Assembly (NCBI GenBank): GCA_041663385.1
Contig: JBAYMZ010000001.1
Coordinates: forward strand, 1 to 34,576
Direction of reading: 5' to 3'
From: Candidatus Omnitrophota bacterium
GTDB lineage: Bacteria; Omnitrophota; Gorgyraeia; Duberdicusellales; 4484-171
DNA length: 34,576 nucleotides
Shown in pieces: positions 10,094-34,576 of this stretch (the first letter of the stretch is position 1; the number at the start of each line of letters is the position of its first letter). Below the pieces are notes generated by a model, which saw only the letters and a list, made by a program, of their open reading frames with translations, had not been told where the DNA came from and did no database searches. The position numbers and the translations under genes are program-made.

Positions 10094-11240
<1,147 letters not shown>

Positions 11241-11254
11241 CTGTTACTGTTTTA

Positions 11255-12256: not shown

Positions 12257-12288
12257 AATATTATTTTAATTATTATATATTAAAATTT

Positions 12289-12352
12289 CTAATTGCTAAT
12301 GACAAATGACTAATTAATGTCTAATTTTCTAATAACTAATGGCTTAGACATT
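12289..12352. repeat. Intergenic element: six CTAAT words plus a 9-bp inverted repeat
   Basis: CTAAT at 12289, 12296, 12310, 12321, 12329 and 12336. aatgtctaa 12316-12324 pairs with ttagacatt 12344-12352. Ends 1 nt from the stop of the second GalT paralog. Confidence 0.6.
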
Positions 12353-12353
12353 T

Positions 12354-17810: not shown

Positions 17811-17981
17811 TTAGTATTGCCAGGCTTTAGCTTCGAACACCGATAGGTTCTTTTCATCATAAACCCGCCCGGCATAGTTAATGTAAGTTTTACCGGGAAC
17901 AAATTTATCTTTGGTTTTGGTAAAGTAATATTTTTTTACCAGTTCTAAAATTTTACTGCGGATAATGCTTTCTTGGCTCAT
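17811..17981 (-). pseudogene. N-terminal remnant (56 codons) of an RfbH/DdhC-like (DegT/DnrJ/EryC1 family) NDP-hexose 3-dehydratase/aminotransferase gene
   Basis: My translation is MSQESIIRSKILELVKKYYFTKTKDKFVPGKTYINYAGRVYDEKNLSVFEAKAWQY*. The ...I.E.V..YY......F.PG.T.INYAGRV.DE... pattern matches RfbH N-termini from memory. The remaining ~380 aa are missing. Confidence 0.55.
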
Positions 17982-19195: not shown

Positions 19196-19197
19196 AG

Positions 19198-20106: not shown

Positions 20107-21167
20107 TACACACCGCCACCTTTAAGAAAACTTTTAATAGTTCTTAAAAAACCATCTTTAACGCTGAAACGGCACCGATAGCCAATTTTCTCTATTTTTG
20201 CTGTTGACAATACCGGGCGTATTTTGTCCTTATTCTCAAGATAGAAACTGTTGTTGTCGCGGCTGGCGTAAACTACTTTTAATTTTTTTTCCGGGAACAA
20301 AGAAACAAGCAGATGTGCCAGTTTGCCTATCGCCATCTGCCCGTCTTTATTACCAACGTTATAACTTTCACCGGGATTGCCTTTCAATAAAACCCTGAAA
20401 AAACCTTCAGTAGCATCGCTGATATAGCAAAAAGTCCGACAGGCCAAACCGTCACTTTTTAAAACAATATCCTGGCCATTTACAATATTAGAAACAAATT
20501 CCGCAAACACTCTTTTGTCAATTTCTAAATCCATAGCCGGGCCATAGGTATGTTCCGGCCTTACCACAAATGTCGGTATTTTATACTGATAATGCCAACA
20601 CTTACACATATTCTCACCCATACGTTTACTCTCACCATAACAACTACGGACATCCATAGAATCCAGATAACCACTATCCTCCTCACTTATAATATTTTTA
20701 TTAACAGCTCCGCAAACTTCGCCGCTGCTAAAAAACAAAAAACCTTTTGATTTTTTTTCTCTGGCAAGTTCCAATAAGTTATAAGTGCCTAAAATGTTCG
20801 GGGTAATCACATTTATCGGATCGCTGCCATAGAATTGAGAACTGGCTGGGCTGGCGGCATGAATAATATAATCAATTTTTTCTTTAATTTTAAGCTTATC
20901 AACTACATCCGCGCAAATCACCTGGAATAAGGGGCTGTTTAAAAAATCGGCAAAGCGTTTTTTTGCTTTTTCAGGGTTACGGCAAAGCGCTAAAACTTTT
21001 ATATTTAATTCGGGACGGATATCATTCAAATGCATCAAAACAAACACCATATACAAGGGCAGCATCCCATAGGCTCCGGAAATCAAAACCGTACTGTCCT
21101 TAAATTTTTCCCAATCCAAACCACTCGTGCAAATGTTTTCTAAATCCTCTCTAATTATTTCATTCAT
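20106..21167 (-). CDS. Extended-SDR NAD-dependent sugar epimerase/dehydratase
   Basis: Rossmann N-terminus (VLISGAYGMLP), FSSGEVCG, and canonical YGESK (YxxxK). The ORF-track start 21173 is TTG. ATG 21167 is preferred. Confidence 0.85.
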   Translation of the reverse strand: MNEIIREDLENICTSGLDWEKFKDSTVLISGAYGMLPLYMVFVLMHLNDIRPELNIKVLALCRNPEKAKKRFADFLNSPLFQVICADVVDKLKIKEKIDYIIHAASPASSQFYGSDPINVITPNILGTYNLLELAREKKSKGFLFFSSGEVCGAVNKNIISEEDSGYLDSMDVRSCYGESKRMGENMCKCWHYQYKIPTFVVRPEHTYGPAMDLEIDKRVFAEFVSNIVNGQDIVLKSDGLACRTFCYISDATEGFFRVLLKGNPGESYNVGNKDGQMAIGKLAHLLVSLFPEKKLKVVYASRDNNSFYLENKDKIRPVLSTAKIEKIGYRCRFSVKDGFLRTIKSFLKGGGV

Positions 21168-21169
21168 AA

Positions 21170-22330
21170 TCAATATAATGTTATTATTTCGTTGGGCAGT
21201 TTTAGTTTTTCTTTAATCTGCCTGGCAACTTCATCCTGATAAGAATAAGTTGATATCAAAATTGGTATATCATCTTTTATGTCTTTCGGCAATCTTATTT
21301 CTACATTGTTTATTTTTTTACCACTATATCTGCTATTTGAATCCACAAAATACAATATTCTGGAAAGATCTAAACCGGAACCAATAAGCCTCTGGGTGTG
21401 TGTCCCCACGCCCCAAACTATTATCTTTTCTTTACCCTTAAGCTTCTCTTTTAGCTTTTCCTTAATTTCTAAATCCATTTTCCGGCATTTATCAATATAA
21501 TTTCTCAAGCACGGGCCGCAAGCCTCGTCCCTGACAATTGCAAAATCCTGCTCAATCGATTTAGATGATAAAATAAAAAGGTCAGGGTCTACTGTTTGAT
21601 TTACCCGGTTTTCATCTTTCAGCACTTTAACTATATTAAAAAAAGCGCTTGATAATAAATTTACGATTGAATACTGGGAAAAATAATTAATATGTTCAAT
21701 GCTGAATTGCTGAAAAGGGGTAAATATATAAGAATCAAAACGTTCCGCGTCAGGAATCTCAATAAACAACAAACCATTGTCTTTAAGCAGCGCTCGGATT
21801 TTATTCATGGCCGGCATGAAATCAACCAGATGTTCAAGAACTGCCGATAAAATAACCAAATCGAATGTTTCCTTGCTATAAAAATCTGAAATATTACCTG
21901 CTACAGCATCAACACCATATAATCTTTTTACAGAGGCTGCGCATGTTGACGACGGATCAAGCCCTAAAAGGTTTGAATATCCATGTTCCTTAAATAACGC
22001 CAATAGGCCGCCGGTGGAACAGCCAATATCCAATATTTTAGCGTTTTTATCGCTCATATAAGGGGACACAAACTTAACAATTTTTTCAAAATGCTCAGTA
22101 TAATTTTCAGAAACAATACCGTCATCATAATTAAATTCGTATTTGGACATGGCTGCATAATAGCCATTAAATTCTTTTTGCGATGGTATATTGTCGCTAT
22201 ATACAAACCCGCAGTTTGCGCAAAGAACAACATCGTAGCCATCCATTAAAGCAATGACTTTGTTGTTAAAATTCTGTCTGTATAACTGGGTTTTATTCGC
22301 ACAGGAACAAATAGGACAAAGTCTATTCAT
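21170..22330 (-). CDS. Class-I SAM methyltransferase with N-terminal Zn-ribbon and C-terminal Rossmann-like domain (TylCIII-type NDP-hexose C-methyltransferase architecture)
   Basis: CPIC...CANCGF Zn ribbon and SAM motif ILDIGCSTGG. The C-terminal IIVWGVGTHTQRL...YFVDSNSRYSGKKINNVEIRLP resembles the C-methyltransferase C-terminal domain (pattern recognition only). Confidence 0.7.
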   Translation of the reverse strand: MNRLCPICSCANKTQLYRQNFNNKVIALMDGYDVVLCANCGFVYSDNIPSQKEFNGYYAAMSKYEFNYDDGIVSENYTEHFEKIVKFVSPYMSDKNAKILDIGCSTGGLLALFKEHGYSNLLGLDPSSTCAASVKRLYGVDAVAGNISDFYSKETFDLVILSAVLEHLVDFMPAMNKIRALLKDNGLLFIEIPDAERFDSYIFTPFQQFSIEHINYFSQYSIVNLLSSAFFNIVKVLKDENRVNQTVDPDLFILSSKSIEQDFAIVRDEACGPCLRNYIDKCRKMDLEIKEKLKEKLKGKEKIIVWGVGTHTQRLIGSGLDLSRILYFVDSNSRYSGKKINNVEIRLPKDIKDDIPILISTYSYQDEVARQIKEKLKLPNEIITLY

Positions 22331-22347: not shown

Positions 22348-23361
22348 TTAATAAATTTTTTTAAGGCGCTCTACCGCGCCGTCGAGAACGTCTTCGGGAA
22401 ACAACCGATACTTAATAATATCGCATTTAGAACAGACTTTACCTGCAGCGTTAACCCCCTCAAGCATTAGGCGCCTGAATTTTCTAAAATGCTCGCTGTT
22501 CCAAATTTCGCATGCCGATTGATTATTACAGTCGCCAATAATCTCCGGATATTCAAACGAATAGCAGGGCACTACTTTTCCATCCGGGTTTATTTGCATG
22601 GTAAAAAAAGGTTGAGGGCATATTTTTACTTCTGAAACCGGTAATCCGAATTGAGTAACCGGCAAATCATTATTCTTTAATAATTTTCCATAATCTATGC
22701 CATGATGGATAGGCACCGTATGCTCAACAGACAAAGCATCACAAATATCTCCAAAAATATCATAAAAACGCTGCTCATCATTTTTATCTTCTAAAGCCGT
22801 ATCAACTATTTTAATATAAACCTGAGCTTTGCCTTTATTTTTAAAGAAGTATCTCAAATTTTCGATATATTTGTTAAAATCAATATCCACCCCGGAAACT
22901 TTCTTATATTTTTCTTTGGTTGTCCCCTGTACCGATACAACCAATCGCGAAAGGCCGTTCTTTATAAGATTTTTCGAAAGTTCTTTGGTTAAAAGCGAGG
23001 CATTGGTTAAAATCTCTAAAACATTAGCAACGTTTTTAGAGGCAGCATATTTAATCATCGCGGCAATATCTTTATGCAAAAGAGGTTCTCCTATGCCCAC
23101 GAAACGCAAAACTTTTATTTTATCAGGGAACGAAACCATATCGTCAATACATTTCTTATATAGATTAAAATTCATCATAGTGTCATCGGAAATAAAACCT
23201 CGTTTGGCCTTAGCGATAGAAAAAATACAATAGCAGCATTTAAAATTACAGGCATAAACCGGGAATATCTGCACAACAAAAGGAGTCGCCAGTGGCACAA
23301 CATCCGCCAAAAGAGTTCTTTTGCCTCCAGGAGCCTGCCCTCTGATATTTTTAGCCTTCAT
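22348..23361 (-). CDS. Radical SAM enzyme with Cys-rich C-terminal (SPASM/twitch-like) extension
   Basis: CNFKCCYC (CX3CX2C). C-terminal Cys residues in CPQPF...VVPCYSF...GDC...CEIW...CSKCD. ATG 23361 with GAGGT upstream is preferred over TTG 23367. Confidence 0.85.
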   Translation of the reverse strand: MKAKNIRGQAPGGKRTLLADVVPLATPFVVQIFPVYACNFKCCYCIFSIAKAKRGFISDDTMMNFNLYKKCIDDMVSFPDKIKVLRFVGIGEPLLHKDIAAMIKYAASKNVANVLEILTNASLLTKELSKNLIKNGLSRLVVSVQGTTKEKYKKVSGVDIDFNKYIENLRYFFKNKGKAQVYIKIVDTALEDKNDEQRFYDIFGDICDALSVEHTVPIHHGIDYGKLLKNNDLPVTQFGLPVSEVKICPQPFFTMQINPDGKVVPCYSFEYPEIIGDCNNQSACEIWNSEHFRKFRRLMLEGVNAAGKVCSKCDIIKYRLFPEDVLDGAVERLKKIY

Positions 23362-23375
23362 CGCCAACCTCTACG

Positions 23376-23870
23376 TTACATGTATTTACGATATAATTTA
23401 TGAAACTTTAGAATATTTTTGGGGCAATTGTCGTGCCATTTTAAATATCCTGGATCTTTTTCAGACAGCCCCTCATTCTTTGGTACAAACTTACCGGAGA
23501 CAAAACACTTATATAATATTGAAATAAAATGACTTCTTACTTTGAGTTCGGGATGAATAAGTTGAATTATTGCTAAGGGCACTTTTTCAAAACTGATACT
23601 AGTTCCTATTTCGGTTTTTGCGACCTTTTTGATTCTGGCTTCTATTGTTTCCTTAAACCTGACAATACCACCAGGAACATGCCAACCCTTGCCGCAATGC
23701 TCATCATCCCGCCAAGCCAAAAGAATACGCCCGCGTTCATCCTTGATTAAAAGATCCACATTTACCAAAGGTGTTGTTTTGCTAATGTAATAAAACAATT
23801 CTTGCGGCAACCCCAGCTCAGGCTTAGGGGCCTTTTTGCTGAGAACAGCTATAGCCTTTGTTATATTCAT
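23376..23870 (-). CDS. NUDIX hydrolase, GDP-mannose mannosyl hydrolase (Gmm/WcaH)-like
   Basis: Nudix box GGIVRFKETIEARIKKVAKTEIG preceded by GKGWHVPGG, which resembles the Gmm-type nucleotide-sugar hydrolase signature. Confidence 0.75.
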   Translation of the reverse strand: MNITKAIAVLSKKAPKPELGLPQELFYYISKTTPLVNVDLLIKDERGRILLAWRDDEHCGKGWHVPGGIVRFKETIEARIKKVAKTEIGTSISFEKVPLAIIQLIHPELKVRSHFISILYKCFVSGKFVPKNEGLSEKDPGYLKWHDNCPKNILKFHKLYRKYM

Positions 23871-23927: not shown

Positions 23928-25007
23928 CTATTTTACCTTATTAAACAGGATTTGAGTCTTGTCTTCATCATTAAAAACCTCGTCGCAGGGAACAGGCAAG
24001 GATTTTCCGTAAATCTTTTTAACCACATATTTGTCAATAAAATCACGGTCCTCGGCAATAAGGCAAGTGTCTACATGCCCCCCAAAATATTTGATATTCA
24101 GGCCCCGTTGAATTATATCTTTTAACGGCTCTTTAAAGACGTTGCCCAGCGACGTATGAATATACGGGCAAGGCAGGACATCGCCATATTGAGTTACGGA
24201 AAACATTCCTTTAACCGCGATACAACCCATATTTAGCCCATAAGCTGGCGTCAAATGAGTGAACACTTTATATTTTTTTTCAAGCGTTTCCATGTATTTC
24301 ATATCAGCTTTATTTACCAAAACATCAAAGTTGCCTTCCCAGGCACCAACGGGCTTAGCATAAGTCACAAACACACCTATACCTTTATTATTAAAGTACT
24401 CAACAAATTTAATGAACTCTTCACTATAAAGCCTTTGCTTAGTGACTACAGTTTGTATGAAAATAGCCAACCCGGCGCCTAAAACCGCATCAATCGCTTT
24501 GATGGCTCTTGCATGCGAACCTTTAGCCCCTCTAAAACTATCGTGCTCTTCGGGATTCAAACTATCGATACTTAATTGTATGCGGTCGATACCAATGCTT
24601 TTTAGATGCTTAGCTCGTCTTTCATCTAAAAGCCATCCGTTGCTATCACAGTTAATATAAAACTTTTGCGGATCGATAGACGCCACCAAAGCGTCTAAAT
24701 CTTTAAACACCAGCGGTTCTCCGCCGGTAATTGTTACCCGGGCCAGGCCAAGTTCATCTGCTTGACGGAAAAGATCCTTTACGTCAGCTATGGTAAATTG
24801 ACGCTTAGATTCTTTCCCCTGAAACCCTTTAACCGAACAATGCTGACATGCTAAATTGCAGGCATAATTATATTGAAATTGGATAATCGCGATGCTTTCC
24901 CCGCGTTTAAACTTTTCTTCAAATTTTAAGATTTTCGTGTAAACATACGGCTTCTCATTTTTTAATTTATTACGGTTATCTGTTTCTTGTGGTTTTAATT
25001 GTCCCAT
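23928..25007 (-). CDS. Radical SAM enzyme (MoaA/PqqE-like core with C-terminal Cys motif)
   Basis: CNLACQHC (CX3CX2C), GGEPL glycine motif, and C-terminal GDVLPCPY...C..ED Cys residues. Confidence 0.85.
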   Translation of the reverse strand: MGQLKPQETDNRNKLKNEKPYVYTKILKFEEKFKRGESIAIIQFQYNYACNLACQHCSVKGFQGKESKRQFTIADVKDLFRQADELGLARVTITGGEPLVFKDLDALVASIDPQKFYINCDSNGWLLDERRAKHLKSIGIDRIQLSIDSLNPEEHDSFRGAKGSHARAIKAIDAVLGAGLAIFIQTVVTKQRLYSEEFIKFVEYFNNKGIGVFVTYAKPVGAWEGNFDVLVNKADMKYMETLEKKYKVFTHLTPAYGLNMGCIAVKGMFSVTQYGDVLPCPYIHTSLGNVFKEPLKDIIQRGLNIKYFGGHVDTCLIAEDRDFIDKYVVKKIYGKSLPVPCDEVFNDEDKTQILFNKVK

Positions 25008-25008
25008 A

Positions 25009-26817
25009 CTAATCCTCTAGAGGCTTAACAAGCATATTCTCTTTAAATTCTTGCCGGTCTAAAAACGGCCACATATCCTCCATGGGTTTGGAGGTTACTG
25101 TACCATCAGGATTTAATTTAGAAACTACCCGCGGCGCGACAACTTGATCAAGAGAAACAGCTACCTCACAAATAACTGGTCCCGGCATTTTCAAAACTTT
25201 ATTTACTTTTTGTTTTATGCCGCTATGATTTTTAATGCGCGCAGTTTTAATACCATAAGCTTTGGCCAACTTAATAATATCAGGCAAAGTCAGGCCGCTG
25301 GAAGCATCACAAGCCACTAAATGACCGGAAAAATTATTTTTCTGAGTAGCCTTAATTGAAGCGTACCCGCCGTTACTTAAAATAAAATATTTTATAGGCA
25401 GCTTCAGACGCCGCAGTGTTTCTAATTCCTGAATGTTAAGTTGAAATCCTCCGTCGCTATTTATGCAAATCGTTCTCTGCCTTCCTGACGCAAGGCAGGC
25501 GCCGATACTAGCCGGCAAACCAAACCCCATCGCGCCGAGCCCCGGCGTATTAATAATCCGCTGGCCGGCCTTAACTTTAAAAGACTGCATAAATAATTCA
25601 CTGCATTGGCCGGAGCTTCCCGGGACGATCACGTCATTGCTTTTTAAAACATCGGACAACACATCAATCAAAATATAAGTATTAACCGCGCTTTTTTCTT
25701 TTCGATATTCCGGCAAAACAACCGGATATTTATTTTTCCACTCTGCGCAGCGCCGCAGCCACGCTATTCGATTATTAACCTTTATTTGCTTTTTATTTTT
25801 CAAAACTTCTTTCATAAAAGCTCCAGCATCAGCACAAATTGAGACATCGGCTTTAAATTTAAATTTTTTAATTTCATTAGGATCTATATCTATAATCACT
25901 TTGCTGGCTTCCCGGGCAAAATCTTTATGATTAAAAGCTAATTGAAGTAAATCCATGCGGGTGCCAAGCATGATGATGCAATCGCTGTTTTGCTGAATAA
26001 AATTAGCTCCCCGCTGGCCGATAATTCCCGGACGGCCAAAATAAAGATTATGACTTTCTGGAAGAAAATCAGCAGATTTCCAGGTAAGAAGTATTGGTAT
26101 ATTTAAATATTGCACAAGCGCACGAAAATCTTCTAGCGCGCCGGCTAAGCGTACGCCATTACCGGCAAGCAATACCGGACGCTCGGCTTTGTTAATGAGA
26201 GCTATAAACTTACCAACACTGCTTTTTAATTGCTCATCATTTTTTGATGCTTTAGGCAACAAAAAACTTTTTAGTTTAGTTTCATCAATCATAGCTGATT
26301 GCACATCTAACGGTATGTCCAACCATACCGGGCCGGGCCGGCCGCTTTTTGCTAAATATACTGCCTTCTCCAAATGATAACGTATGTCCTCAGGCTTATC
26401 CACTCTAACAACATATTTCGTTATCGGTTTAACCATAGGCACAATGTCAATCTCTTGCGGCCCCATTTGGCGCACGCCATGCAATAACGCTGAATCAGCG
26501 CGTTTAACCTGGCCGGAAAAAATTATTAAAGGTGTTGAATCCAGCCAGGCACCGGCTATCCCAGTAATAGCATTAGTGCCTCCCGGGCCGGAAGTTACCA
26601 CAGCTACGCCCAAATTTCCGCTATATTGACTGTAGCTTTCAGCACCAATAGCACAAGCCTGCTCATGGAGGTTACAAACATATTCTATTTCTTTATATTT
26701 ACCGACTGAATCAATTAAATGCATACAGCCACCGCCAGGCAATAGAAATACATGCCTTACGCCTTGCCGGACTACAAATTTAAATACATAATCAGAAAGT
26801 TTAATCATTGGGCACAT
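25009..26817 (-). CDS. Thiamine-diphosphate-dependent enzyme, acetolactate-synthase-large-subunit family (YerE-like candidate)
   Basis: GPGGTNAITGIAGAWLDSTPLIIFSGQV in the Pyr domain. ThDP-binding motif GLGAMGFGLPASIGA...SDGGFQLNIQEL...N. About 600 aa. The start may be ATG 26808. Confidence 0.85.
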   Translation of the reverse strand: MCPMIKLSDYVFKFVVRQGVRHVFLLPGGGCMHLIDSVGKYKEIEYVCNLHEQACAIGAESYSQYSGNLGVAVVTSGPGGTNAITGIAGAWLDSTPLIIFSGQVKRADSALLHGVRQMGPQEIDIVPMVKPITKYVVRVDKPEDIRYHLEKAVYLAKSGRPGPVWLDIPLDVQSAMIDETKLKSFLLPKASKNDEQLKSSVGKFIALINKAERPVLLAGNGVRLAGALEDFRALVQYLNIPILLTWKSADFLPESHNLYFGRPGIIGQRGANFIQQNSDCIIMLGTRMDLLQLAFNHKDFAREASKVIIDIDPNEIKKFKFKADVSICADAGAFMKEVLKNKKQIKVNNRIAWLRRCAEWKNKYPVVLPEYRKEKSAVNTYILIDVLSDVLKSNDVIVPGSSGQCSELFMQSFKVKAGQRIINTPGLGAMGFGLPASIGACLASGRQRTICINSDGGFQLNIQELETLRRLKLPIKYFILSNGGYASIKATQKNNFSGHLVACDASSGLTLPDIIKLAKAYGIKTARIKNHSGIKQKVNKVLKMPGPVICEVAVSLDQVVAPRVVSKLNPDGTVTSKPMEDMWPFLDRQEFKENMLVKPLED

Positions 26818-27394
26818 TCAAGATTTTAGTTAATAAATTTAAAGTTTCCTGAAGCGGAATTTTGGCTGCATTCCAAGGCTGAGGGATTAATATTCCTTTT
26901 ATTCCTAAAGAATCAACCGCCTTCACATTCAGAAAATTATCATCCACAAAAATATCGACTTTTCCAAGCCATTTCAAATATTCACTTTTATTAGCATCAT
27001 AAGCAATAATCCCTTCTTCTACCCTGTCCGGAACAAAACTAAATGTTCTAACCCAATTTCCAAAATACTTAAACACCCACCCGGACACCTGTGGAATACT
27101 CGATACCGGACGGCCGGTAATGGCTAAATGCCTGGCATGCCTGCCATATTTTTGAAACCAGTTTAAAATATCATCATCGGGTTTCATTAACCCGGCCTTA
27201 TCAGAAATCCTAAAAGCATCTAAAGACTTCAAGTACTCCCGTTCGGATATTCCTAAAATTCTACAGGGAGGGTTTTCTGTAATATTCTCATATTTAACCA
27301 AACATTCCGGATGCTTCGGCAACCATTCAAGTTCCAGCCACGAACGCATAAGACCATTTAAAACATCATCCACATCCCAAGCAATAGTTAACAT
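26801..27394 (-). CDS. HAD-superfamily phosphatase (NT5C-like DxDxV motif)
   Basis: N-terminal IAWDVDDVLNG (motif I) and C-terminal IFVDDN (motif IV). The ORF-track start 27400 is TTG. ATG 27394 is preferred. Confidence 0.7.
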   Translation of the reverse strand: MLTIAWDVDDVLNGLMRSWLELEWLPKHPECLVKYENITENPPCRILGISEREYLKSLDAFRISDKAGLMKPDDDILNWFQKYGRHARHLAITGRPVSSIPQVSGWVFKYFGNWVRTFSFVPDRVEEGIIAYDANKSEYLKWLGKVDIFVDDNFLNVKAVDSLGIKGILIPQPWNAAKIPLQETLNLLTKILNVPND

Positions 27395-27409: not shown

Positions 27410-28915
27410 TTAGTCCAACCAGTCAGTTAATAAAGTTTTACGATTTTTGTTTTCGCTTATTTTAGGATCAGTATAATAGGAATCATCCTTATAATGCGTT
27501 GAAGAAATCTCTTCAATTACAGTTCCGCCTTTAGTGCTAAAGCTATGCCTTACGCCTCTCTCTACAACAACCACATCTCCCGGATGACAAACCTTATCCT
27601 TGCCGTCAAGCTTGATCTCTATGTCGCCGTATAAAACGTTGAATGTCTCTTCTTTTTCTTTGTGGTATTGCTCCGGATGGGCTTGCCCAGGCATCAGAAC
27701 AATAATTTTTTTACAGTACTCACGATTTATGCAATTTATAATAACTCCGCCGTAACGTTCAAAATCATCAATCCCGTAATGATAAGATATTTCCAGCCCC
27801 AGCTGGTTAGGCACAACCACACCACTTTTCCTTATAATTTCTTTAGCCTGCGAAACAATTTTATATACCTTTTCCCGTAATTCTACAATTTTTACGTCCT
27901 TAAAAAATACAGCCTGTTTATTGCCAATGTTAATTTTAGCATAAAATTCAGTATATTTGGAAACCTCACTGGCAGATATCTGCCCATCAGCAATAGGTAT
28001 AGCGAAAAACAATTTTGCCGGATCTATTTTATCTCCTGCCTTAATCGACTCGGAAACAAACGCACCTCTCTTTAATGCCCGTAAATCATTTAACTCTTTC
28101 TCGCTAAATTTATACCGTTCACCGTAAAGTCCGCAAAATGTTAAAGCTTCCTGCGCGGCCGATAACCAACCAAAAATCTCTTGCGGCATTGCCGAATAAG
28201 CATTCAAACTATCCGGGCCATCTTTAACCCCAACATGCTTTTCAAATATAGTTGCTCCTTTAGAAATTGCCAGTTTTACAGACTCAACGCTGCTACCTGT
28301 CTCATGGTTAGAATAACCAATTTCCATACCGGGATAACGCCGCTTAAGAAAATCTATTTGATTAAGTTGTAGATTTTCTTTTAAGGTGGGGTATTCTGAA
28401 ACGCAATGCAGAAGCGAAAGTTTCTTATCACGATGCAGAAAAAAACTTACAACCCTGTCGATGTCATCAACAGTAGCCCCGGCCACTGAAGCAATAATCG
28501 GTTTATCAGTTTTGACTATCCGCTCAAGCAAAGGCCAATCCGTAAAAGAACAACTTCCAAGTTTGATTATATCCCAATCCTGTTTTTCAATAAGCCCCAC
28601 GGATTGCTCATCAAAAGGCGTGCAAATTGAAACAAAGCCGCATTTATCTATCTCTTCCTTGAGGCGTAAAAATTCTTCTTCTTTCAGCCTGGTCTGGGAA
28701 AACCGCTTTATGTGCTTATACTCATGCCTGCCTTTAAAATCAGGATGGATAAAAGTGTCTAAATCGCGGTATTGAAGTTTGAATGCAAAATTGAAAGGAA
28801 ATTTTTTACTTACCTCGTATATTTCCCTTACAATCCTTAATCCGTGTTCTAATTTTCCCATATGATTATTGGCCATCTCAAAAATAAATAACGGCCGCAA
28901 ACTAATATTACTCAT
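27410..28915 (-). CDS. NeuB-family ulosonic (sialic-acid-type) acid synthase fused to SAF domain and a C-terminal cupin (D-lyxose/D-mannose isomerase-like) domain
   Basis: NeuB signatures IFEMANNHMG, GYSNHETG and EKHVG. SAF-like KRGAFVSESIKAGDKI. Extra ~130-aa C-terminus MPGQAHPEQYHKEKEE...GD..V...G..HSF...EEISSTHYKDDSYYTD. Length is 501 aa versus ~340 for typical NeuB. Confidence 0.8.
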   Translation of the reverse strand: MSNISLRPLFIFEMANNHMGKLEHGLRIVREIYEVSKKFPFNFAFKLQYRDLDTFIHPDFKGRHEYKHIKRFSQTRLKEEEFLRLKEEIDKCGFVSICTPFDEQSVGLIEKQDWDIIKLGSCSFTDWPLLERIVKTDKPIIASVAGATVDDIDRVVSFFLHRDKKLSLLHCVSEYPTLKENLQLNQIDFLKRRYPGMEIGYSNHETGSSVESVKLAISKGATIFEKHVGVKDGPDSLNAYSAMPQEIFGWLSAAQEALTFCGLYGERYKFSEKELNDLRALKRGAFVSESIKAGDKIDPAKLFFAIPIADGQISASEVSKYTEFYAKINIGNKQAVFFKDVKIVELREKVYKIVSQAKEIIRKSGVVVPNQLGLEISYHYGIDDFERYGGVIINCINREYCKKIIVLMPGQAHPEQYHKEKEETFNVLYGDIEIKLDGKDKVCHPGDVVVVERGVRHSFSTKGGTVIEEISSTHYKDDSYYTDPKISENKNRKTLLTDWLD

Positions 28916-30045
28916 TTCTTACCCCCAATAGTTGAATAAACCTTGCAATTCTTGCAAACTTGAGGAAACCGGTTAGATTTAAGAGTGGATAAAAAGCTTT
29001 TAAATTCTTTTGAACGCCAAAAATTACGAAAATCCCCTTCTAAAAGATTCATAAAAGCATTATTCTTCTGAAATTCCCTGTCATTAGCTTCATTTAACAC
29101 ACAGCAGGGTTGAATATGGCCGCTGGATAAAATAAACGGTTCGCTCCATTTTGTGCACATAGAAGGGCATTGTTTACGGCTTATATTTTCGTTCCAATTA
29201 ACAAAAATTCCCTTTTTGTGAGCTGCCTCCTCTATTTTATTTTTTAATTCCTCAGAAACATTATCAACTCGCAAATCTTTTGTCTCTTTAAAATCCATCA
29301 GGCCGGTATAAAAAATTAAGGAAGCTGCTTGAGGTACATCCTTCATCAGCTCAGCTACAAAATCCACATAAGCAAGCATTTCCGGATAATTATATTTGTT
29401 GATGATAAAATGAAACCAAACCTCCGGCAGCAAGGCTTTTTTGCGCTTTTTTATTTCAAAAAAGGTTTTTATGTTAGCAATAACTTTTTCAAAATTTGCC
29501 CCAACTCTTATTTTCTCGTAAGTCTCTTTTGTTGTAGCTTCGATAGATAACCATATCCTGTCGATATTTAAATCAATTATTCTTTCAGCAATCTTATCAT
29601 CCACAAGCGTAAAAGTATCATAAAATTCAACATACATGCCTTTTGACTTAGCATATTCCAGCATTTTCATATAATCTGGATTCAAAAAAGATGAGCCTAT
29701 GCCGGTAAGGCCTAACCACTTAAGCCGCGGAAATTGATCAACTATCTGCCTGAATTGAGCATAGCTGAGATCCCTGACAGGCTCCTTCCAAAAAGTATGT
29801 TCACAAATCACGCAACGCAAATGACAGCGAGTAGTTGGTTCTATCTCAATGGCTTCAGGATAGGGCGTAAGCGCGGGAAACCTTCTCCATAAAGGATCAA
29901 ATAGCGCGATTCCTGAATCTCGGGTTACTATCGCGCTCCATAAATAACAATAAGCGTTTCGAAACTTACCTCTAGCTAAAAGGTATAAAGTATTTCTTAA
30001 GCGTGAGCCAACCATCCCTAAAAATTTTAAACGACGCGCATCCAT
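28912..30045 (-). CDS. Radical SAM enzyme with Cys-rich C-terminal (SPASM-like) extension
   Basis: CHLRCVIC (CX3CX2C). C-terminal CPSMCTKW...GHIQPCCVL...CKNCKVY. There is a 4-nt ATGA overlap with the downstream NeuB-like gene. Confidence 0.85.
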   Translation of the reverse strand: MDARRLKFLGMVGSRLRNTLYLLARGKFRNAYCYLWSAIVTRDSGIALFDPLWRRFPALTPYPEAIEIEPTTRCHLRCVICEHTFWKEPVRDLSYAQFRQIVDQFPRLKWLGLTGIGSSFLNPDYMKMLEYAKSKGMYVEFYDTFTLVDDKIAERIIDLNIDRIWLSIEATTKETYEKIRVGANFEKVIANIKTFFEIKKRKKALLPEVWFHFIINKYNYPEMLAYVDFVAELMKDVPQAASLIFYTGLMDFKETKDLRVDNVSEELKNKIEEAAHKKGIFVNWNENISRKQCPSMCTKWSEPFILSSGHIQPCCVLNEANDREFQKNNAFMNLLEGDFRNFWRSKEFKSFLSTLKSNRFPQVCKNCKVYSTIGGKK

Positions 30046-30057: not shown

Positions 30058-30786
30058 TTATAAATGTTCAAAATAGCTTCTTGTTTTATCTAATTCATCT
30101 TTATAGTTAACGTTTATGTAATCCGAACAGATCACAAATGGCTTAACCACCTTTCCATCATCAATCGCGCACTGAATAAGATCGGGTAATTCTTTTTGCA
30201 TCCTCTGCTGATTTATCGGAGTATGTTTTATGTAATCTAAGATCGCATTTTTAAATATACAGTTTCCTGTACCCATAAAATCGTTTATCGGGTTTCGAGG
30301 CTTTTCTACCAACCGCCAGATACGAGCATCGTTATCCGTAAATATCGTGTAGGTTTTTTTGATAAGGTTTCTATCTGTTACTTTCAATACTCCGCAAAGC
30401 GCAAACACCTTACTGCTTATAAATTCCTGAATAAATTCTTTATGCCTGGCGTTAATCATAACCTCATCGCCAAGCATTAACATGAAATCGTCTTTGCCCA
30501 ATGCATCTTTAGCGCATTCTATGGCATGCACAAGCCCAAGTTGTTCTTCCTGTTTAATATAAATAACAGGCTTGCCTTGATACGACTCTCCAAAACGCTT
30601 GATGATATCCTCTGCTTTATAACCCACAAGCAGGATTATTTTGTCTATCTCTTTTAGATTAGCAGCTGCATTAAGGCTGTATTCAATTAAAGGCTTTCCA
30701 GAAACCTCTAAGAAGCATTTATTGACTACTTCTGTAACGCTGCCGATTCTTTTACCTCGGCCGCCGGCTAAAATCAAAGCCTTCAT
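30058..30786 (-). CDS. Sugar-1-phosphate nucleotidyltransferase (RmlA/GlmU-type NTP_transferase fold)
   Basis: MKALILAGGRGKRI (GxGxR signature) and a GDEV motif. ATG 30786 with GGAG upstream is preferred over TTG 30801. Not a CMP-ulosonate synthetase type. Confidence 0.85.
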   Translation of the reverse strand: MKALILAGGRGKRIGSVTEVVNKCFLEVSGKPLIEYSLNAAANLKEIDKIILLVGYKAEDIIKRFGESYQGKPVIYIKQEEQLGLVHAIECAKDALGKDDFMLMLGDEVMINARHKEFIQEFISSKVFALCGVLKVTDRNLIKKTYTIFTDNDARIWRLVEKPRNPINDFMGTGNCIFKNAILDYIKHTPINQQRMQKELPDLIQCAIDDGKVVKPFVICSDYINVNYKDELDKTRSYFEHL

Positions 30787-30790
30787 TGTT

Positions 30791-31822
30791 TTAATCTCCA
30801 AATAAATCAGGATTAGTTTTAATCCAATTAATTAAATTTTCTACTCCTTGGCGCGGCTGGACTTTTGGCAACCAGCCTAAAGCATTAAACGCTTTTTGGC
30901 TGTTACAGGCAAAATACAACAAATCACCAAACCTGCCGGGACAAAATTCTATTTCAGGTTTCTTGCCTAAAATATCAGCAATCATACTTATACATTCCAA
31001 TAAAGAAATCATGGTAAGTTTTCCACCGCCGATATTATAAATACCGGGAATTTGCTTTTCATAGAACGCGTTAAAAGCCGCCACCAAATCAGAGGCATAA
31101 AGTATATCACGAACCTGTTTACCTGTTCCATAAACCCGCAAAGGCATATTTTTAATCGCCCGGATAGCAAAGTTAGCAACCCAGCCATGATCCTCTCCGC
31201 CAAGCTGACGCGGTCCGTATAAGCCGGTTAAACGAAAACTTGCAGCTTTAACTTTGTAAGTATCGGCATACACTTTGACATAAAAATCAGCCGCGGCTTT
31301 TGAGGCATGCAAGGGCGTTAAAGTTCCACCCAATACCGGGTAATTTTCATCAATTAATTCTTCCTTACGTAAATAACGGGTATCTGCTTGTGTCAACTCC
31401 TCATTAAGTTTATTACCGTAAATATGTATCGTGGCACAGCTGACCACAGGGATTTTGAATTTGCGGGCAGCTTCCAGCACATTTATTGTCCCCATAACAT
31501 TGGTAGTAAAATCCAGTTCCGGATCTTCTTCGCTAATCGTCATAGCCGGTTGAGCCGCAGTATGAATAATAAAATCACATTCCTTAGCATACTCAAATAA
31601 AGCTTCCCGGTTACGAACATCCTCTTTAATCAGTTCCACTCCTAATGCTTTTAAATAATTCCAGTTATAGCCTCTGGCTGAATCTGTATTATAGCCGGTA
31701 CGCATTAATTCGTGCTTAGTCATGTTGTCATATGAAATAACTTTGACTCCAAGCTTAGCATAATATTCGCAGCACCATGAACCAATAAAACCGCAACCAC
31801 CGGTAACAAGAATTTTTTTCAT
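30791..31822 (-). CDS. Extended-SDR, CDP-paratose/tyvelose 2-epimerase-like, with non-canonical active-site segment
   Basis: GGCGFIGS, AAQPAMT, GEDHGWVANF and GTGKQVRDILYASDL resemble the RfbE family. The expected YxxxK position reads LHASK. Confidence 0.8.
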   Translation of the reverse strand: MKKILVTGGCGFIGSWCCEYYAKLGVKVISYDNMTKHELMRTGYNTDSARGYNWNYLKALGVELIKEDVRNREALFEYAKECDFIIHTAAQPAMTISEEDPELDFTTNVMGTINVLEAARKFKIPVVSCATIHIYGNKLNEELTQADTRYLRKEELIDENYPVLGGTLTPLHASKAAADFYVKVYADTYKVKAASFRLTGLYGPRQLGGEDHGWVANFAIRAIKNMPLRVYGTGKQVRDILYASDLVAAFNAFYEKQIPGIYNIGGGKLTMISLLECISMIADILGKKPEIEFCPGRFGDLLYFACNSQKAFNALGWLPKVQPRQGVENLINWIKTNPDLFGD

Positions 31823-32985
31823 TATTTACCCTCTTTCGTTGCTTGTTGAAAAATATCAATATACTGACGGCTAAATTTATCCCAAGTTAAATTTTCTTTC
31901 ACCCAAACTGAAGCCTTTGAAGCTTGCTCTTTATATTTTTGGTACGAATTATGGATATTGATTAAAGCGGAAGCTAAATCTTGCGTTACAGTGCCTAAAT
32001 TATTATCCTGAACTAACGTTGCCGCGCCCATCTGTGGATAAACCACAACCGGAACAGCACAGGATAACGCCTCAAATACCGATAGATAACCGCCTTGTAA
32101 TTTTACTGGAAACACACACAAATTACAAGCCGAATACAAATCATAAACATCTTCCTTATTAAGCATGCCGGTAAAAATCACCTTTCCAGGCAGAGAAAGT
32201 TCAGAAACTTCTTTTTTAAGGCTCGCGGCATAAGCTCCGCTATCATTGCCGGCTAAAATTAATTTTGCCGAAGGAATTTTATCTGTAATTTTAGAAAATG
32301 CCTGGATTGTATCTTCCTGATTTTTAGCCGGAGAAATCACCCCTACTTGCAAGAGCACAAAAGAATCATCGCTTAAACCATATTTGCTTAACACCTCTTT
32401 TTTTGAAGCCTTTCCAAAATCAGCAGGCGGCTTATCTATGCCGTAAGGAGTTAAAATCGCAGTTTTACCGTAACGCTGTTTAACCGTTTCTGCGTTAAAC
32501 CGATCAGCCGCGCATATTACATCTACGCTGGAGTTAATTATTGTTTTATCAAGTTTTACTCCAAACCAACGTACAAGCTTAAGAGGCAGGGAAAGTTTTT
32601 TGTTATTATAAAAATCAGGAATCTCATTGCACAGCCAGACTGTTGGTTTATCGATTCCAAGCCCAACCCAACTTGCAGGAAAATTATGCAAGTTGATAAC
32701 ATCAAAATCTTTACAATATCGCTTAATTAATTTTCGTAAGTAATATATCTCTTTAAATATGCCAAGCGACGACAAAAAAGAACGGCTGCGGAATTCATAT
32801 TTAAATTTAGTTTCCGGGGTAACTATATTTATCCCCTTACATTTATCCGCTACCTCCTTAGAAAGATTAAGCGTAAGTACAGTATTCTCCACTCCCAAAC
32901 GGGTAAGGTTTAATGACAACTCTTTTACTACCTGTTCTGCCCCGCCATAAAGCCCCATAAATCGATTAACAATTAAAACTTTCAT
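31822..32985 (-). CDS. GT4-family (GT-B fold) glycosyltransferase
   Basis: N-terminal MKVLIVNRFMGLYGGAEQVV and C-terminal GGYLSVFEALSCAVPVVV (E..E-type motif). Confidence 0.85.
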   Translation of the reverse strand: MKVLIVNRFMGLYGGAEQVVKELSLNLTRLGVENTVLTLNLSKEVADKCKGINIVTPETKFKYEFRSRSFLSSLGIFKEIYYLRKLIKRYCKDFDVINLHNFPASWVGLGIDKPTVWLCNEIPDFYNNKKLSLPLKLVRWFGVKLDKTIINSSVDVICAADRFNAETVKQRYGKTAILTPYGIDKPPADFGKASKKEVLSKYGLSDDSFVLLQVGVISPAKNQEDTIQAFSKITDKIPSAKLILAGNDSGAYAASLKKEVSELSLPGKVIFTGMLNKEDVYDLYSACNLCVFPVKLQGGYLSVFEALSCAVPVVVYPQMGAATLVQDNNLGTVTQDLASALINIHNSYQKYKEQASKASVWVKENLTWDKFSRQYIDIFQQATKEGK

Positions 32986-33938
32986 TTTTTTAAATGTTTT
33001 GCTCCGGCTAATTCCAAATCACATATTTCAGCACAGGGAGAATGGCAAATTGTGTCGCCTTGACGCAGCTTAAAACTTCCATCAAATAAATTACCCATTC
33101 TAAAAATATCCCGGCTGTCAGCTCTGCCCTGATAAGGCAAACATTCAGAATAATAATAGCCCTCCATGCAGCTATAAACATTTCCGTTAGATATCATTAT
33201 AAAAAAACCGCTGCCGGCTTTACATTTCTTAGGAGAAAAATCATTAAAATTGTATCCTCTTGTCCGGTTGGGCGCGATAAAACCTTTCTTTTTGTATTCT
33301 TCAATTAAACTAAGCTCTTTCTGGCTATATTCATATCCGGGTTCTTTATAGGTATCAACTTTAAAAGCTGCCAAGCCTTCTTTTTCAAAATATCGCTTTA
33401 ACTCAGGAATTAAAGCGATCTGTTTAGGGTGCGCCACAAAATTTACCGTAATATTTTTAAAACCATGCGCATGAATTTCTTTCAATCGAGATAAAAGCTC
33501 TTCTTTAGTAGCCATTGAAGGATGGAAGCTGGCCATTATCCGAAAATTTTTATTTCTCACGGCATAAAGACGGTTTAAATTTACGCTTAAATTCGTAACC
33601 ATTGATGAAATAACATGTTTTGAAGGAAAATTATCAATTAATTCGGTAATATCTTTATACAAAAGAGGTTCTCCTCCGGTGATAGTAAAAACTGAAGGTG
33701 GAAAATTTTCAAAAACCTTAACCCAGTCCTGCCATGAACGATACGATGATTTTAAATTGTCCGGAGTAAAACGATTCCAAATACAATAAGGACAATTATA
33801 GTTACACCCCAAAAATGGTAAAAAAATTACATTCCTGACTCCAGGGAATAGCTTTCGATAATAAGGCAGCAGGGCTTGCCGCAACCTTTCAGGAAGAAAT
33901 GAATTAACTTTTTTTAAAATAGAAATAAAAAGATTCAT
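32982..33938 (-). CDS. Radical SAM enzyme
   Basis: CNYNCPYC (CX3CX2C), TGGEPLL, and C-terminal Cys residues (CKAG...SCMEGYYYSEC...CHSPCAEIC). Confidence 0.85.
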   Translation of the reverse strand: MNLFISILKKVNSFLPERLRQALLPYYRKLFPGVRNVIFLPFLGCNYNCPYCIWNRFTPDNLKSSYRSWQDWVKVFENFPPSVFTITGGEPLLYKDITELIDNFPSKHVISSMVTNLSVNLNRLYAVRNKNFRIMASFHPSMATKEELLSRLKEIHAHGFKNITVNFVAHPKQIALIPELKRYFEKEGLAAFKVDTYKEPGYEYSQKELSLIEEYKKKGFIAPNRTRGYNFNDFSPKKCKAGSGFFIMISNGNVYSCMEGYYYSECLPYQGRADSRDIFRMGNLFDGSFKLRQGDTICHSPCAEICDLELAGAKHLKK

Positions 33939-33953: not shown

Positions 33954-34576
33954 TCATCGACAACCAAGATTATACCCCAGAAAATTCCATGCTCCGCGAA
34001 GTTTTCGGTAAAGATCTGAAAGAGAGTGTGTATCCAGAAGAAACTTCAGCATAAAGCCGGGACGAAAATAAAATTTTTTAAGCCCCAAATCCACATAATG
34101 GTTGATTTTTTCCTGGCTAATCCCAGGGTATTCAACAATACCTTTTTGCTCACCGGCTGAAAGCCAGCATCGCCAGTCTTTAGTTTTAAGCCAAGCTTCT
34201 TTTTCCGCCATCTCAAAAAATTTAGTTCCGGGAAACGGCACAGCTCCTGAAAATTGCAAGGTATCGCAATTAAGCGACATGGCAAACTCTACAGTTTTTT
34301 TAGCTGTACTTTCAGTTTCCCCGGGTAAACCAACAACAAAACATCCATGAACCTTAAAACCATGCTTATGAGCAGACTCGAGGAACAAACGGGAATCTTC
34401 GAGCCTGATATTTTTGTGGCTCTTATCAAGAATTTCCTGGCTGCCGGATTCAAAACCCGCTAAAAGCTCCCGGCACCCGGCTTGCCGCATTATTTTAAAC
34501 ATTTTTTCATCGAGGCTGTCGACTCTGGCATTAACGGAAAAAGTTATTTTTAAGTTGCGCCGCAAAATCTCTTCAC
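33954..34576 (-). CDS. Class-B (B12-binding-domain type) radical SAM enzyme, C-terminal part only (5-prime end beyond window)
   Basis: GFESGSQEILDKSHKNI, FVVGLPGET and QFSGAVPFPGT are typical of the radical-SAM core C-terminal half of B12-rSAM proteins. The frame stays open to the window edge, and the track start at 34565 is an internal TTG. Confidence 0.75.
   Translation of the reverse strand, partial: EEILRRNLKITFSVNARVDSLDEKMFKIMRQAGCRELLAGFESGSQEILDKSHKNIRLEDSRLFLESAHKHGFKVHGCFVVGLPGETESTAKKTVEFAMSLNCDTLQFSGAVPFPGTKFFEMAEKEAWLKTKDWRCWLSAGEQKGIVEYPGISQEKINHYVDLGLKKFYFRPGFMLKFLLDTHSLSDLYRKLRGAWNFLGYNLGCR

Follow-up and report, generated by a model that had tools for sequence, protein, structure and literature searches.

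We describe here a three-gene module found in the complete 34,576-bp contig of a Candidatus Omnitrophota metagenome-assembled genome (MAG), the whole of which was analyzed and is called the window in what follows. The module begins with a gene (27410-28915, minus strand) whose 501-residue product joins a NeuB-type synthase and its SAF domain to a C-terminal cupin, and continues with the genes of a HAD-superfamily phosphatase and of a YerE-like enzyme dependent on thiamine diphosphate (ThDP). The three genes are a collinear, translationally coupled trio, of which the ThDP partner was not noticed in the first-pass annotation, i.e., an earlier description of this DNA. On balance, and with modest confidence, we favor the view that the trio would supply an ulosonic acid as the acyl branch of a nucleoside diphosphate (NDP)-4-ketosugar, and not a sialic-acid-like sugar. 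The elements of the module are the following:

27410-28915, minus strand: NeuB-SAF-cupin fusion gene, an open reading frame (ORF) with an ATG start that encodes 501 aa plus the stop (Pfam NeuB, Cupin_2, and Lyx_isomer)
28130-28897, minus strand: NeuB TIM-barrel, the domain of a predicted phosphoenolpyruvate (PEP)-condensing synthase, about aa 7-262 (Pfam NeuB, E = 7e-40; 50% identity to the PDB entry 3g8r; conserved residues)
27881-28108, minus strand: SAF/antifreeze-like domain, about aa 270-345 (alignment to the SAF region of 3g8r; reach of the TIGR03569 alignment)
27413-27880, minus strand: cupin domain of the D-lyxose/D-mannose isomerase type, about aa 346-501 (Pfam Cupin_2 and Lyx_isomer; Foldseek; alignment to YdaE)
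26801-27394, minus strand: NT5C-like phosphatase of the HAD superfamily, 197 aa when read from the ATG at 27394 (AlphaFold2 model, Foldseek, and NT5C matches of its orthologs)
25009-26817, minus strand: YerE-like, predicted ThDP-dependent carboligase, 602 aa (Pfam TPP_enzyme_N/M/C; JanthE as the best PDB match)

The start of the fusion gene shares an ATGA overlap of 4 nt with the stop of an upstream radical S-adenosylmethionine (radical SAM) gene, and 15 nt separate its own stop from the next ATG, at 27394, which opens the HAD ORF; both junctions are as first described. The stop of the HAD ORF overlaps the start of the ThDP gene, whose true start is probably the ATG at 26808. The presence of NeuB, an SAF-like domain, and a C-terminal cupin in one 501-residue ORF, which the first-pass annotation had proposed, was borne out by Pfam, by alignments, and by Foldseek. 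The Pfam matches are NeuB at aa 46-245 (E = 7e-40), Cupin_2 at aa 405-463 (E = 2.3e-11) and, by a marginal pass that covers positions 40-124 of the 222 of the profile PF07385, Lyx_isomer at aa 362-436 (E = 1.2e-5; 25.1 bits, with the gathering score at 20.8). The AlphaFold2 model of the protein, built with 49 homologs, is confident within the domains (predicted local distance difference test, pLDDT, 89.1) and less so in their arrangement (predicted template modeling score, pTM, 0.60), and a Foldseek search of the PDB cuts it in two, with aa 1-340 falling on 3g8r and, at a greater distance, on NeuB, PseI, and SpsE, and aa 340-501 on D-lyxose isomerases.

Regarding the NeuB half, the domain (PF03102) passes the Pfam gathering score with 137.4 bits against 22.1, whereas the scores of the protein lie far under the NCBIfam equivalog cutoffs, namely 126 against 400 for TIGR03569 (NeuB) and 120 against 340 for TIGR03586 (PseI), which points to a divergent NeuB subfamily. 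The synthase is complete, as had been claimed, with its catalytic residues intact by alignment across 49 family members: K46, Q48, K118, S121, S143, S202, H204, E225, and H227 are invariant, and E13 is Glu in 43 and Asp in 6. The invariant residues align with the metal and PEP site of Neisseria meningitidis NeuB, which comprises a metal-binding His pair and PEP-binding Lys, Ser, and Glu residues. Opposite N184, D247, and R314 of the same enzyme, the family has Ser or Ala, Asn, and Ile or Phe, respectively, and these substitutions make it unlikely that the sugar substrate resembles N-acetylmannosamine (ManNAc). As for the SAF region, the fusion protein itself has no match to Pfam SAF at E ≤ 0.01, and the assignment is supported by the TIGR03569 alignment, which extends to residue 332, by the alignment to 3g8r, which extends to residue 342, by the 335 columns that Foldseek places on 3g8r, and by the precomputed PF08666 (SAF) match present in several homologs.

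The resemblance of the C-terminal domain to the cupins of D-lyxose/D-mannose isomerases, first suggested by its motifs (GQAHPEQYHKEKEE, GVRHSF, and EISSTHYKDDSYYTD, all located in the protein), is now supported by the fold, by the catalytic Lys and Glu, and by a metal site with one variable ligand. Its best structural matches are 2y0o, 7nzo/p/q, and 3kmh/3mpb, over 166-201 columns with a root-mean-square deviation of 2.2-2.9 Å, and the domain aligns with Bacillus subtilis YdaE across both cupin motifs and the C-terminal tail. In the isomerase TsLI of Thermofilum, Mn is bound by H75, H77, E88, and H143, of which E88 also serves as the base, and the enediol is stabilized by K86 (PMC8378251); H75, H77, K86, E88, and H143 correspond to [Q/H]416, H418, K421, E423, and H457 of the fusion. 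Three of the metal ligands (H418, E423, and H457) are invariant across the 49 sequences, together with K421 and E469, and the fourth ligand position, 416, is occupied by Gln in 25 of them and by His in 24, and the window protein has Gln. The family also has the invariant basic residues R347, R398, K402, R492, and K493, along with a C-terminal extension, and neither feature is found in YdaE; they could serve as a phosphate site or as an interface between domains.

The first-pass annotation had considered the fusion possibly undescribed. In the databases, however, it is not a rarity, and it represents a very large, uncharacterized family. A scan of species-representative genomes, with one genome per species, gave at least 574 fusion candidates in bacteria and archaea. 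The top 120 database homologs listed are all proteins of about 500 aa with NeuB and Cupin_2, 56-62% identical to the window protein, and their annotations go no further than "N-acetylneuraminate synthase family protein" or "SpsE/cupin". The locus counts given below, as "of 80" or as numbers of loci, refer to the best 80 of the at least 574 candidates, all full-length; partners were counted by tblastn of the cluster proteins of the window against these 80 loci, and RfbH was scored as present at ≥45% identity. Among these best 80, the bacterial carriers belong to Patescibacteria, Omnitrophota, Nitrospirota, Chloroflexota, Planctomycetota, Desulfobacterota, Acidobacteriota, Bacteroidota, Cyanobacteria, Verrucomicrobiota, and Bacillota and include the cultured Mycolicibacterium rhodesiae, and the archaeal ones are Methanoperedens, Nanoarchaeia, and Altiarchaeota.

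One member has even been crystallized in part, since 3g8r, an entry of 350 residues named "probable SpsE", was made from a shortened construct of P0241, a 495-aa NeuB-SAF-Cupin_2 protein of Chromobacterium violaceum; among the best 120 relatives of 3g8r, nearly all are fused, and the two exceptions come from contigs only about 1-1.5 kb long. The fusion is concealed by the name and length under which this entry was deposited, and its gene is at 10001-11488 of the C. violaceum locus (L086). An exhaustive search with the cupin domain alone found 131 representative clusters at E ≤ 1e-30, and its best 150 matches comprise 68 full-length fusions, 35 clearly N-truncated fragments, 24 unclassified proteins (mostly fragments), and 23 short proteins, which may be fragments or split genes. 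In the literature accessible to us, we found no published description of a NeuB-cupin fusion or of a link between YerE and NeuB-type enzymes, and a survey of YerE-like clusters may already list the gene; a paper on the phylogeny of nonulosonic acid synthases mentions neither a cupin nor a fusion. Krug et al. reportedly surveyed more than 200 YerE-like clusters in silico in 2024.

The second gene of the trio was correctly described as an adjacent HAD phosphatase, although single-sequence searches with the 197-aa protein gave no match in Pfam, NCBIfam, or the PDB, and a PDB profile search reached E values of 0.1-0.7 only. The assignment comes from its orthologs and its fold: 16 of the 27 syntenic orthologs match Pfam NT5C, the HAD motif residues D7, D9, D10, K136, and D152 are invariant among the orthologs, and the AlphaFold2 model (pLDDT 96.3, pTM 0.91) has only HAD-superfamily entries or HAD-derived designs among its top 50 listed PDB matches. 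The best of these is the deoxyribonucleotidase-like 3bwv (TM-score 0.78), and others include phosphoglycolate phosphatase and HDHD4 (NANP), the phosphatase of N-acetylneuraminic acid (Neu5Ac) 9-phosphate. The gene adjoins the fusion in 53 of 80 loci, with a median identity of 46% and a median gap of 33 bp. In the M. rhodesiae operon, a 275-aa HAD_2 protein, phosphoglycolate-phosphatase-like and unrelated to the NT5C-like HAD, is encoded directly after the ThDP gene (L084, 13367-14194), in what looks like a non-orthologous replacement of the phosphatase. The betaproteobacterial operons that lack the HAD gene share a conserved protein of about 265 aa (L086, 16354-17151; L087, 19178-19966), which has no counterpart in the window; it was considered as a phosphatase, and no family match was found for it.

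The third gene is the most frequent partner of the fusion among those of the trio, as it is present in 67 of the 80 loci (median identity 57%), where it is collinear with the fusion at a median gap of 24 bp, and the dominant order on one strand is NeuB-cupin, HAD, ThDP. The best PDB match of its product is JanthE (8rph/8rpi/8rpj), at E = 8e-125, whereas the best acetolactate synthase reaches 2e-82. JanthE, from Janthinobacterium sp. HH01, is a ThDP lyase of the YerE-like kind with no physiological substrate assigned to it (PMC12188165), and it was rejected as an ortholog of the module enzyme, being about equally distant from the window and the C. violaceum enzymes. The ThDP motif of the window enzyme (aa 453-458) reads SDG instead of the canonical GDG; among its orthologs, 68 have GDG and 3 SDG, and JanthE has CDG.

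The genes around the trio suggest an acceptor for such an enzyme. RfbH, the 3-dehydrase acting on CDP-6-deoxy-4-hexulose (CDP, cytidine diphosphate), is encoded in 57 of 80 loci, often immediately upstream of the fusion; a glucose-1-phosphate-cytidylyltransferase-like gene is present in 55 and a CDP-glucose 4,6-dehydratase-like gene in 58. CTP_transf_3-like genes, i.e., those for synthetases that activate ulosonates with cytidine monophosphate (CMP), occur in 2 of the 80 loci (L010 and L083), and no CMP-nonulosonate synthetase of this type lies within the window. Aldolase Pfam families are absent from the window and from seven Pfam-annotated loci, and the position of the aldolase, beside the ThDP gene, is filled by the NeuB-cupin gene, usually with the HAD gene. 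The operon of M. rhodesiae (L084) illustrates the arrangement: glucose-1-phosphate cytidylyltransferase, CDP-glucose 4,6-dehydratase, and RfbH (E1 3-dehydrase), all above the NCBIfam cutoffs, are followed by GT2, NeuB-cupin, the ThDP enzyme, the HAD_2 phosphatase, two methyltransferases, and a short-chain dehydrogenase/reductase (SDR). In a Nanoarchaeota locus (L003), RfbH (761 bits) comes directly after the fusion gene and the acceptor genes are again above the NCBIfam cutoffs, and the same operon type is found in C. violaceum, in Azoarcus sp. KH32C, where it lies near a flagellin gene, and in a Thermodesulfobacterium-type locus.

In the route that we favor, the C-terminal cupin would act as a metal-dependent isomerase and convert a ketose, most likely a ketose phosphate drawn from central metabolism, into the matching 2,3-cis aldose. 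The favored step would be that from fructose-6-phosphate to mannose-6-phosphate; xylulose-5-phosphate and sedoheptulose-7-phosphate are the alternatives and would fit the 2,3-cis stereochemistry equally well. The NeuB/SAF domain would then condense the aldose with PEP to a 3-deoxy-2-ulosonic acid or its phosphate, and the HAD phosphatase would take off the terminal phosphate to leave the free ulosonic acid, without CMP activation. This alpha-keto acid would be the donor for the YerE-like enzyme, which would decarboxylate it and transfer the resulting polyhydroxyacyl carbanion onto C-4 of an NDP-4-keto-(3,)6-deoxyhexose. Finally, the SDR and the methyltransferases would tailor the long branch, and glycosyltransferases would place the sugar in a surface glycan. 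What was observed comprises the identities of the domains, the conservation of their catalytic residues, the fold of the HAD protein, the relatedness of the ThDP enzyme to the YerE-like kind, and the synteny and co-occurrence of the genes; all enzymatic activities, the substrate, the order of the steps, and the product are inferred.

Chemically, the condensation of PEP with an aldose by a NeuB-type enzyme gives a 3-deoxy-4-hydroxy-2-oxo acid, which is the donor type of YerE-like enzymes. The ThDP partner, the CDP-3,6-dideoxyhexose context, and the rarity of CMP-ulosonate synthetases together suggest that the product is an alpha-keto-acid donor for branching, and not an end product of the sialic type or of the type of 2-keto-3-deoxy-D-glycero-D-galacto-nononic acid (KDN). 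A phosphorylated central metabolite is favored by the retention of a phosphatase in the operon even where the usual HAD is replaced by an unrelated one, and the invariance of the catalytic and family-specific residues from archaea to mycobacteria likewise favors such a metabolite, or one universal substrate. A path from fructose-6-phosphate through mannose-6-phosphate to KDN-9-phosphate would fit the precedents known from both parent families, NeuB and the isomerases. Accounting for the isomerase, synthase, and phosphatase by the logic of the pathways to KDN-9-phosphate and to 3-deoxy-D-manno-octulosonic acid (Kdo), as was done in the first-pass annotation, is still the most economical reading of the fusion and the HAD gene, and what is disfavored is the KDN or sialic-type end product that it implied. 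More tentatively still, and at slightly less than even confidence, we propose that this NeuB-family enzyme may supply C8-C10 3-deoxy-ulosonic acids, e.g., KDN, whose grafting by the ThDP enzyme to a CDP-ketosugar would give 13- to 15-carbon branched "higher sugars" in hundreds of lineages, including those of the candidate phyla radiation (CPR) and DPANN, on cell surfaces and possibly on flagella, with the radical-SAM and NUDIX enzymes adding further chemistry.

The other genes of the window that enter this discussion are listed below:

23928-25007, minus strand: radical SAM/SPASM enzyme of the module (Pfam; 42 of 80 loci, median identity 68%)
23376-23870, minus strand: NUDIX hydrolase of the module (Pfam NUDIX; 31 of 80 loci, median identity 56%)
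22348-23367, minus strand: second radical SAM/SPASM enzyme, of a subset of modules (Pfam; 18 of 80 loci, 61% identity)
21170-22330, minus strand: methyltransferase, candidate tailoring enzyme (Pfam)
20106-21173, minus strand: SDR, candidate side-chain reductase (Pfam)
17811-17981, minus strand: rfbH remnant, the N-terminal 47 codons of a CDP-6-deoxy-4-hexulose 3-dehydrase (tblastn, 51% identity to RfbH aa 1-47)
28912-30045, minus strand: upstream radical SAM/SPASM gene (4-nt overlap with the fusion start; homolog in 2 of 80 loci)
30058-30801, minus strand: sugar-1-phosphate nucleotidyltransferase (Pfam, NCBIfam)
30791-31822, minus strand: 4,6-dehydratase-like SDR (Pfam, NCBIfam)

No protein of the module is more conserved than the radical SAM/SPASM enzyme at 23928-25007, which is 45% identical to its counterparts in the C. 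violaceum and Azoarcus operons; a PDB search with it gave only generic matches to MoaA and SkfB. The NUDIX protein weakly matches GDP-mannose mannosyl hydrolase (GDP, guanosine diphosphate), and its gene is accompanied by that of the radical SAM enzyme in 18 of the 19 NUDIX-positive long loci, both genes being present in the betaproteobacterial operons as well. The idea that the radical-SAM/NUDIX pair replaces RfbH was discarded, as there is no anti-correlation and the radical SAM gene is present in 22 of the 35 RfbH-positive long loci. The methyltransferase and the SDR of the window have close orthologs (61-71% identity) in the loci L010 and L080 and only distant counterparts in the betaproteobacterial operons; the SDR may have a YerF-like role.

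The nucleotidyltransferase and the 4,6-dehydratase-like SDR are the probable source of the NDP-4-keto-6-deoxyhexose acceptor, and both score under the equivalog cutoffs, the former not being an RfbF equivalog. No intact RfbH is encoded on the contig, and its remnant is a 56-aa ORF in a gap of 390 bp between the genes of Wzx and a GT2 glycosyltransferase. Given the lack of an intact RfbH and of CDP-glucose equivalogs, the acceptor here is probably another NDP-4-keto-6-deoxyhexose, or else the pathway has been remodeled.

The coupling of the fusion to the upstream radical-SAM gene, to which the first-pass annotation drew attention, proved specific to this genome, with a homolog in 2 of the 80 loci. 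This gene and those at 32982-33938 and 33954-34565, radical-SAM genes also on the minus strand, are either not conserved partners or are matched only distantly, and the last of them is similar to the C-terminal portion of radical-SAM enzymes of the B12-binding kind, which occur in 25 of the 80 loci. The contig ends within this region, so that the gene cluster extends past it and is incomplete. Outside the glycan cluster, beside a glycolytic gap-pgk-tpi block, two tandem genes on the minus strand (11255-13361) are of the galactose-1-phosphate uridylyltransferase/HIT-like kind (DUF4921 type).

Elsewhere, in the Azoarcus locus (L087; positions 2806-4401 and 20049-21491), the module lies a few kb from a flagellin gene, and both there and in C. 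violaceum (L086; positions 18329-21488) it is followed by a giant protein with weak matches to glycosyltransferase domains, of >1185 aa in C. violaceum and 1532 aa in Azoarcus; this may be a system for the glycosylation of flagellin or of a surface protein. A ribulose-phosphate 3-epimerase gene is found near the module in the loci L088 (4488-5144) and L011 (2635-3171), in the latter directly beside the ThDP gene; as a recurrent neighbor pointing to xylulose-5-phosphate it was set aside, since 2 of about 88 loci are a weak hint and may be due to chance.

Several points weigh against the route from a ketose phosphate to an acyl-branched sugar. To our knowledge, no member of the fusion family has been biochemically characterized, and the characterized D-lyxose isomerases, like the bacterial NeuB, LegI, and PseI, take unphosphorylated sugars; the case for a phosphorylated substrate comes down to the HAD neighbor. 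This gene is itself missing in about a third of the loci, the betaproteobacterial operons included. Polyhydroxylated 3-deoxy-ulosonic acids exist mainly as cyclic hemiketals, a form poor as a ThDP donor, and the enzymes MyGE and MMAR_2332 were inactive, or were not tried, with ketone acceptors. In the window, moreover, the absence of an intact RfbH and of an RfbF equivalog makes the acceptor uncertain, and the pathway here may have undergone modification or be in decay. Finally, the proposed route leaves the strongly co-conserved radical-SAM/SPASM and NUDIX genes unexplained.

These points need to be considered along with four other explanations of the module. The NeuB homology and the adjoining HAD gene recall the synthase/phosphatase pairs for KDN-9-phosphate and Neu5Ac-9-phosphate, and one may imagine a classical nonulosonic route, in which a free KDN-like sugar is activated with CMP by an unlinked synthetase and used as a terminal acidic sugar, while the ThDP enzyme separately makes a two-carbon branch of the yersiniose type from pyruvate, the substrate that YerE itself takes. 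The loci L010 and L083, with their CTP_transf_3 genes, would agree with it. However, such genes are absent from 78 of the 80 loci and from the window, for which reason a CMP-activated nonulosonic acid is disfavored as the end product; the fusion gene is nearly always contiguous, co-oriented, and translationally coupled with the ThDP gene; and the protein is far under the NCBIfam cutoffs for NeuB and PseI, with Ile or Phe at the position of R314, the sugar-recognition residue of N. meningitidis NeuB. We regard this route as unlikely. A further option retains the ThDP enzyme as the consumer of the product and changes the origin of the substrate: the NUDIX protein, with or without the HAD, would free a sugar from an NDP-sugar, as a two-step equivalent of PseG, LegG, or NeuC, and the cupin would isomerize or 2-epimerize it before the NeuB domain condenses it with PEP. 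The preference of characterized D-lyxose isomerases and of bacterial NeuB-type enzymes for unphosphorylated sugars speaks for it, as does the resemblance of the NUDIX protein to GDP-mannose mannosyl hydrolase and its presence in many modules, including those of the Betaproteobacteria without HAD. Yet NUDIX and HAD are uncoupled, with 21 long loci having HAD without NUDIX and 6 the reverse, NUDIX associates with the radical-SAM gene and not with the fusion gene, and the strong conservation of the fusion across phyla suits a universal central metabolite better than the variable product of an NDP-sugar. An origin from NDP-sugars is, in our judgment, as improbable as the classical route.

The two remaining explanations concern the role of a single protein. 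Because the ThDP enzyme belongs to the acetolactate synthase/decarboxylase superfamily, whose members use alpha-keto acids both as donors and as acceptors, it could be a simple decarboxylase, yielding a 2-deoxy-aldose and thus a net two-carbon extension, or an enzyme of the acetolactate synthase type that takes the 2-keto group of the ulosonate as the acceptor of a pyruvate-derived unit. This seems very unlikely to us, as its nearest characterized relative is a YerE-like enzyme that accepts ketones, the tight tie to RfbF/G/H, the known makers of the YerE acceptor, would be left unexplained, and the annotated loci contain no kinase or mutase for activating a free 2-deoxy-aldose. The cupin, in turn, might not interconvert aldoses and ketoses; it might be a non-catalytic module for oligomerization or regulation or, like RmlC and FdtA, an epimerase or ketoisomerase of NDP-sugars. 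In favor of this are the functional diversity of cupins, the Gln that replaces the first metal His in half of the family, the window protein included, and weak sequence matches to quercetinases and PuuR-type cupins. Against it, D-lyxose isomerases are the top matches, in sequence as in structure, along all 160 residues of the domain; the Lys and Glu of the catalytic site and three of the metal ligands do not vary in any of the 49 sequences, and the fourth ligand is always Gln or His; and no Pfam match to the RmlC or FdtA families was found. We consider a different function of the cupin scarcely probable.

If the route through an acyl-branched sugar is correct, it provides the first functional hypothesis for a very large family annotated as "N-acetylneuraminate synthase family protein", including the 2009 entry 3g8r, which was solved without its cupin. 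The known route to sugars with long acyl branches would gain a PEP-dependent supply of donors, new higher-carbon sugars would be predicted in many uncultured phyla, and YerE-like ThDP enzymes, of interest in biocatalysis as a source of chiral tertiary alcohols, would acquire candidate physiological donors. Genome surveys, for their part, should not score these genes as a capacity for sialic or nonulosonic acids. The existence of cultured carriers, namely C. violaceum, Azoarcus sp. KH32C, M. rhodesiae, and Thermodesulfobacterium sp. TA1, allows direct testing.

Among the known systems, the closest to the fusion protein is 3g8r, deposited as a "probable spore coat polysaccharide biosynthesis protein E" of C. 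violaceum, which belongs to the same family, has 50% identity to the window protein across aa 7-342, and ranks first among the structural matches (TM-score 0.85). The natural protein, P0241, has 495 aa and is encoded in the same operon type as the window module; the 350-residue construct that was crystallized lacks the cupin and comes from structural genomics, with no assigned activity or ligand, and the C. violaceum operon differs in having no HAD gene. With NeuB, LegI, and PseI (PF03102), the fusion shares the TIM barrel, the SAF domain, and, by alignment, the residues of the metal and PEP site, whereas it is only about 22% identical to them, has the extra cupin, has no CMP-synthetase neighbor, and occurs in another genomic context. 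The pairs for KDN-9-phosphate and Neu5Ac-9-phosphate (BT1714/BT1713 of Bacteroides and NANS/NANP of animals) likewise combine a NeuB-type synthase with a HAD phosphatase and imply a sugar-phosphate substrate, but they have no fused isomerase, their HAD belongs to another subfamily than the NT5C-like one of the window, and their product is activated with CMP. The Kdo pathway follows the same three-step logic, i.e., a ketose-phosphate isomerase (KdsD), a condensation with PEP (KdsA), and a HAD phosphatase (KdsC), and the likeness is one of analogy only, since its enzymes are separate polypeptides, of which KdsD has a SIS domain and KdsA is a member of the KDO8P/DAHP synthase family, and since its product is activated with CMP.

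The cupin half finds its relatives in the D-lyxose/D-mannose isomerases, i.e., YdaE (2y0o), TsLI (7nzo), and Escherichia coli Z5688 (3kmh), with which it shares the cupin fold, complete with an N-terminal helix and a C-terminal tail, the motif GQ..P.[H/Q].H..K.E, the His of the second motif, and the tail E.SST...D..[FY]TDP. These enzymes are free-standing and act on free sugars in catabolism; the fusion cupin is about 20-25% identical to them, often has Gln in place of the first metal His, and has the additional basic residues R398, K402, R492, and K493 along with its C-terminal extension. As for the ThDP enzyme, JanthE is its closest solved relative, though no ortholog, and both have a non-canonical ThDP motif.

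Regarding the pathway as a whole, the nearest precedent is the scheme of Steitz et al. (2022), according to which the donors of YerE-like enzymes are gamma-hydroxy (3-deoxy) alpha-keto acids of C4-C8, made by a neighboring pyruvate aldolase, the acceptor is CDP-4-keto-3,6-dideoxyglucose, a YerF-type reduction follows, and the acyl-branched sugars obtained are erwiniose, caryophyllose, and gastriose (PMC9306805). The enzymes in question, YerE, ErwE, MMAR_2332, and MyGE, with the aldolases ErwI, MMAR_2331, and MygI (PMC9306805), have in common with the module a ThDP enzyme, in the module YerE-like by its best solved relative, beside the maker, in the module a predicted one, of a 3-deoxy-4-hydroxy-2-oxo acid, as well as a CDP-3,6-dideoxyhexose cluster, an SDR, and methyltransferases; the RfbF/RfbG/RfbH set of such clusters is represented in the window only by the rfbH remnant and by a nucleotidyltransferase and a dehydratase under the equivalog cutoffs, and is present in the family at large. 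The module differs from them in that the fusion and a phosphatase take the place of the pyruvate aldolase, the predicted donors are longer (C8-C10), and there are additional radical-SAM and NUDIX genes. Within the aldolase/YerE scheme for making acyl-branched sugars, the module would represent a variant that depends on PEP.

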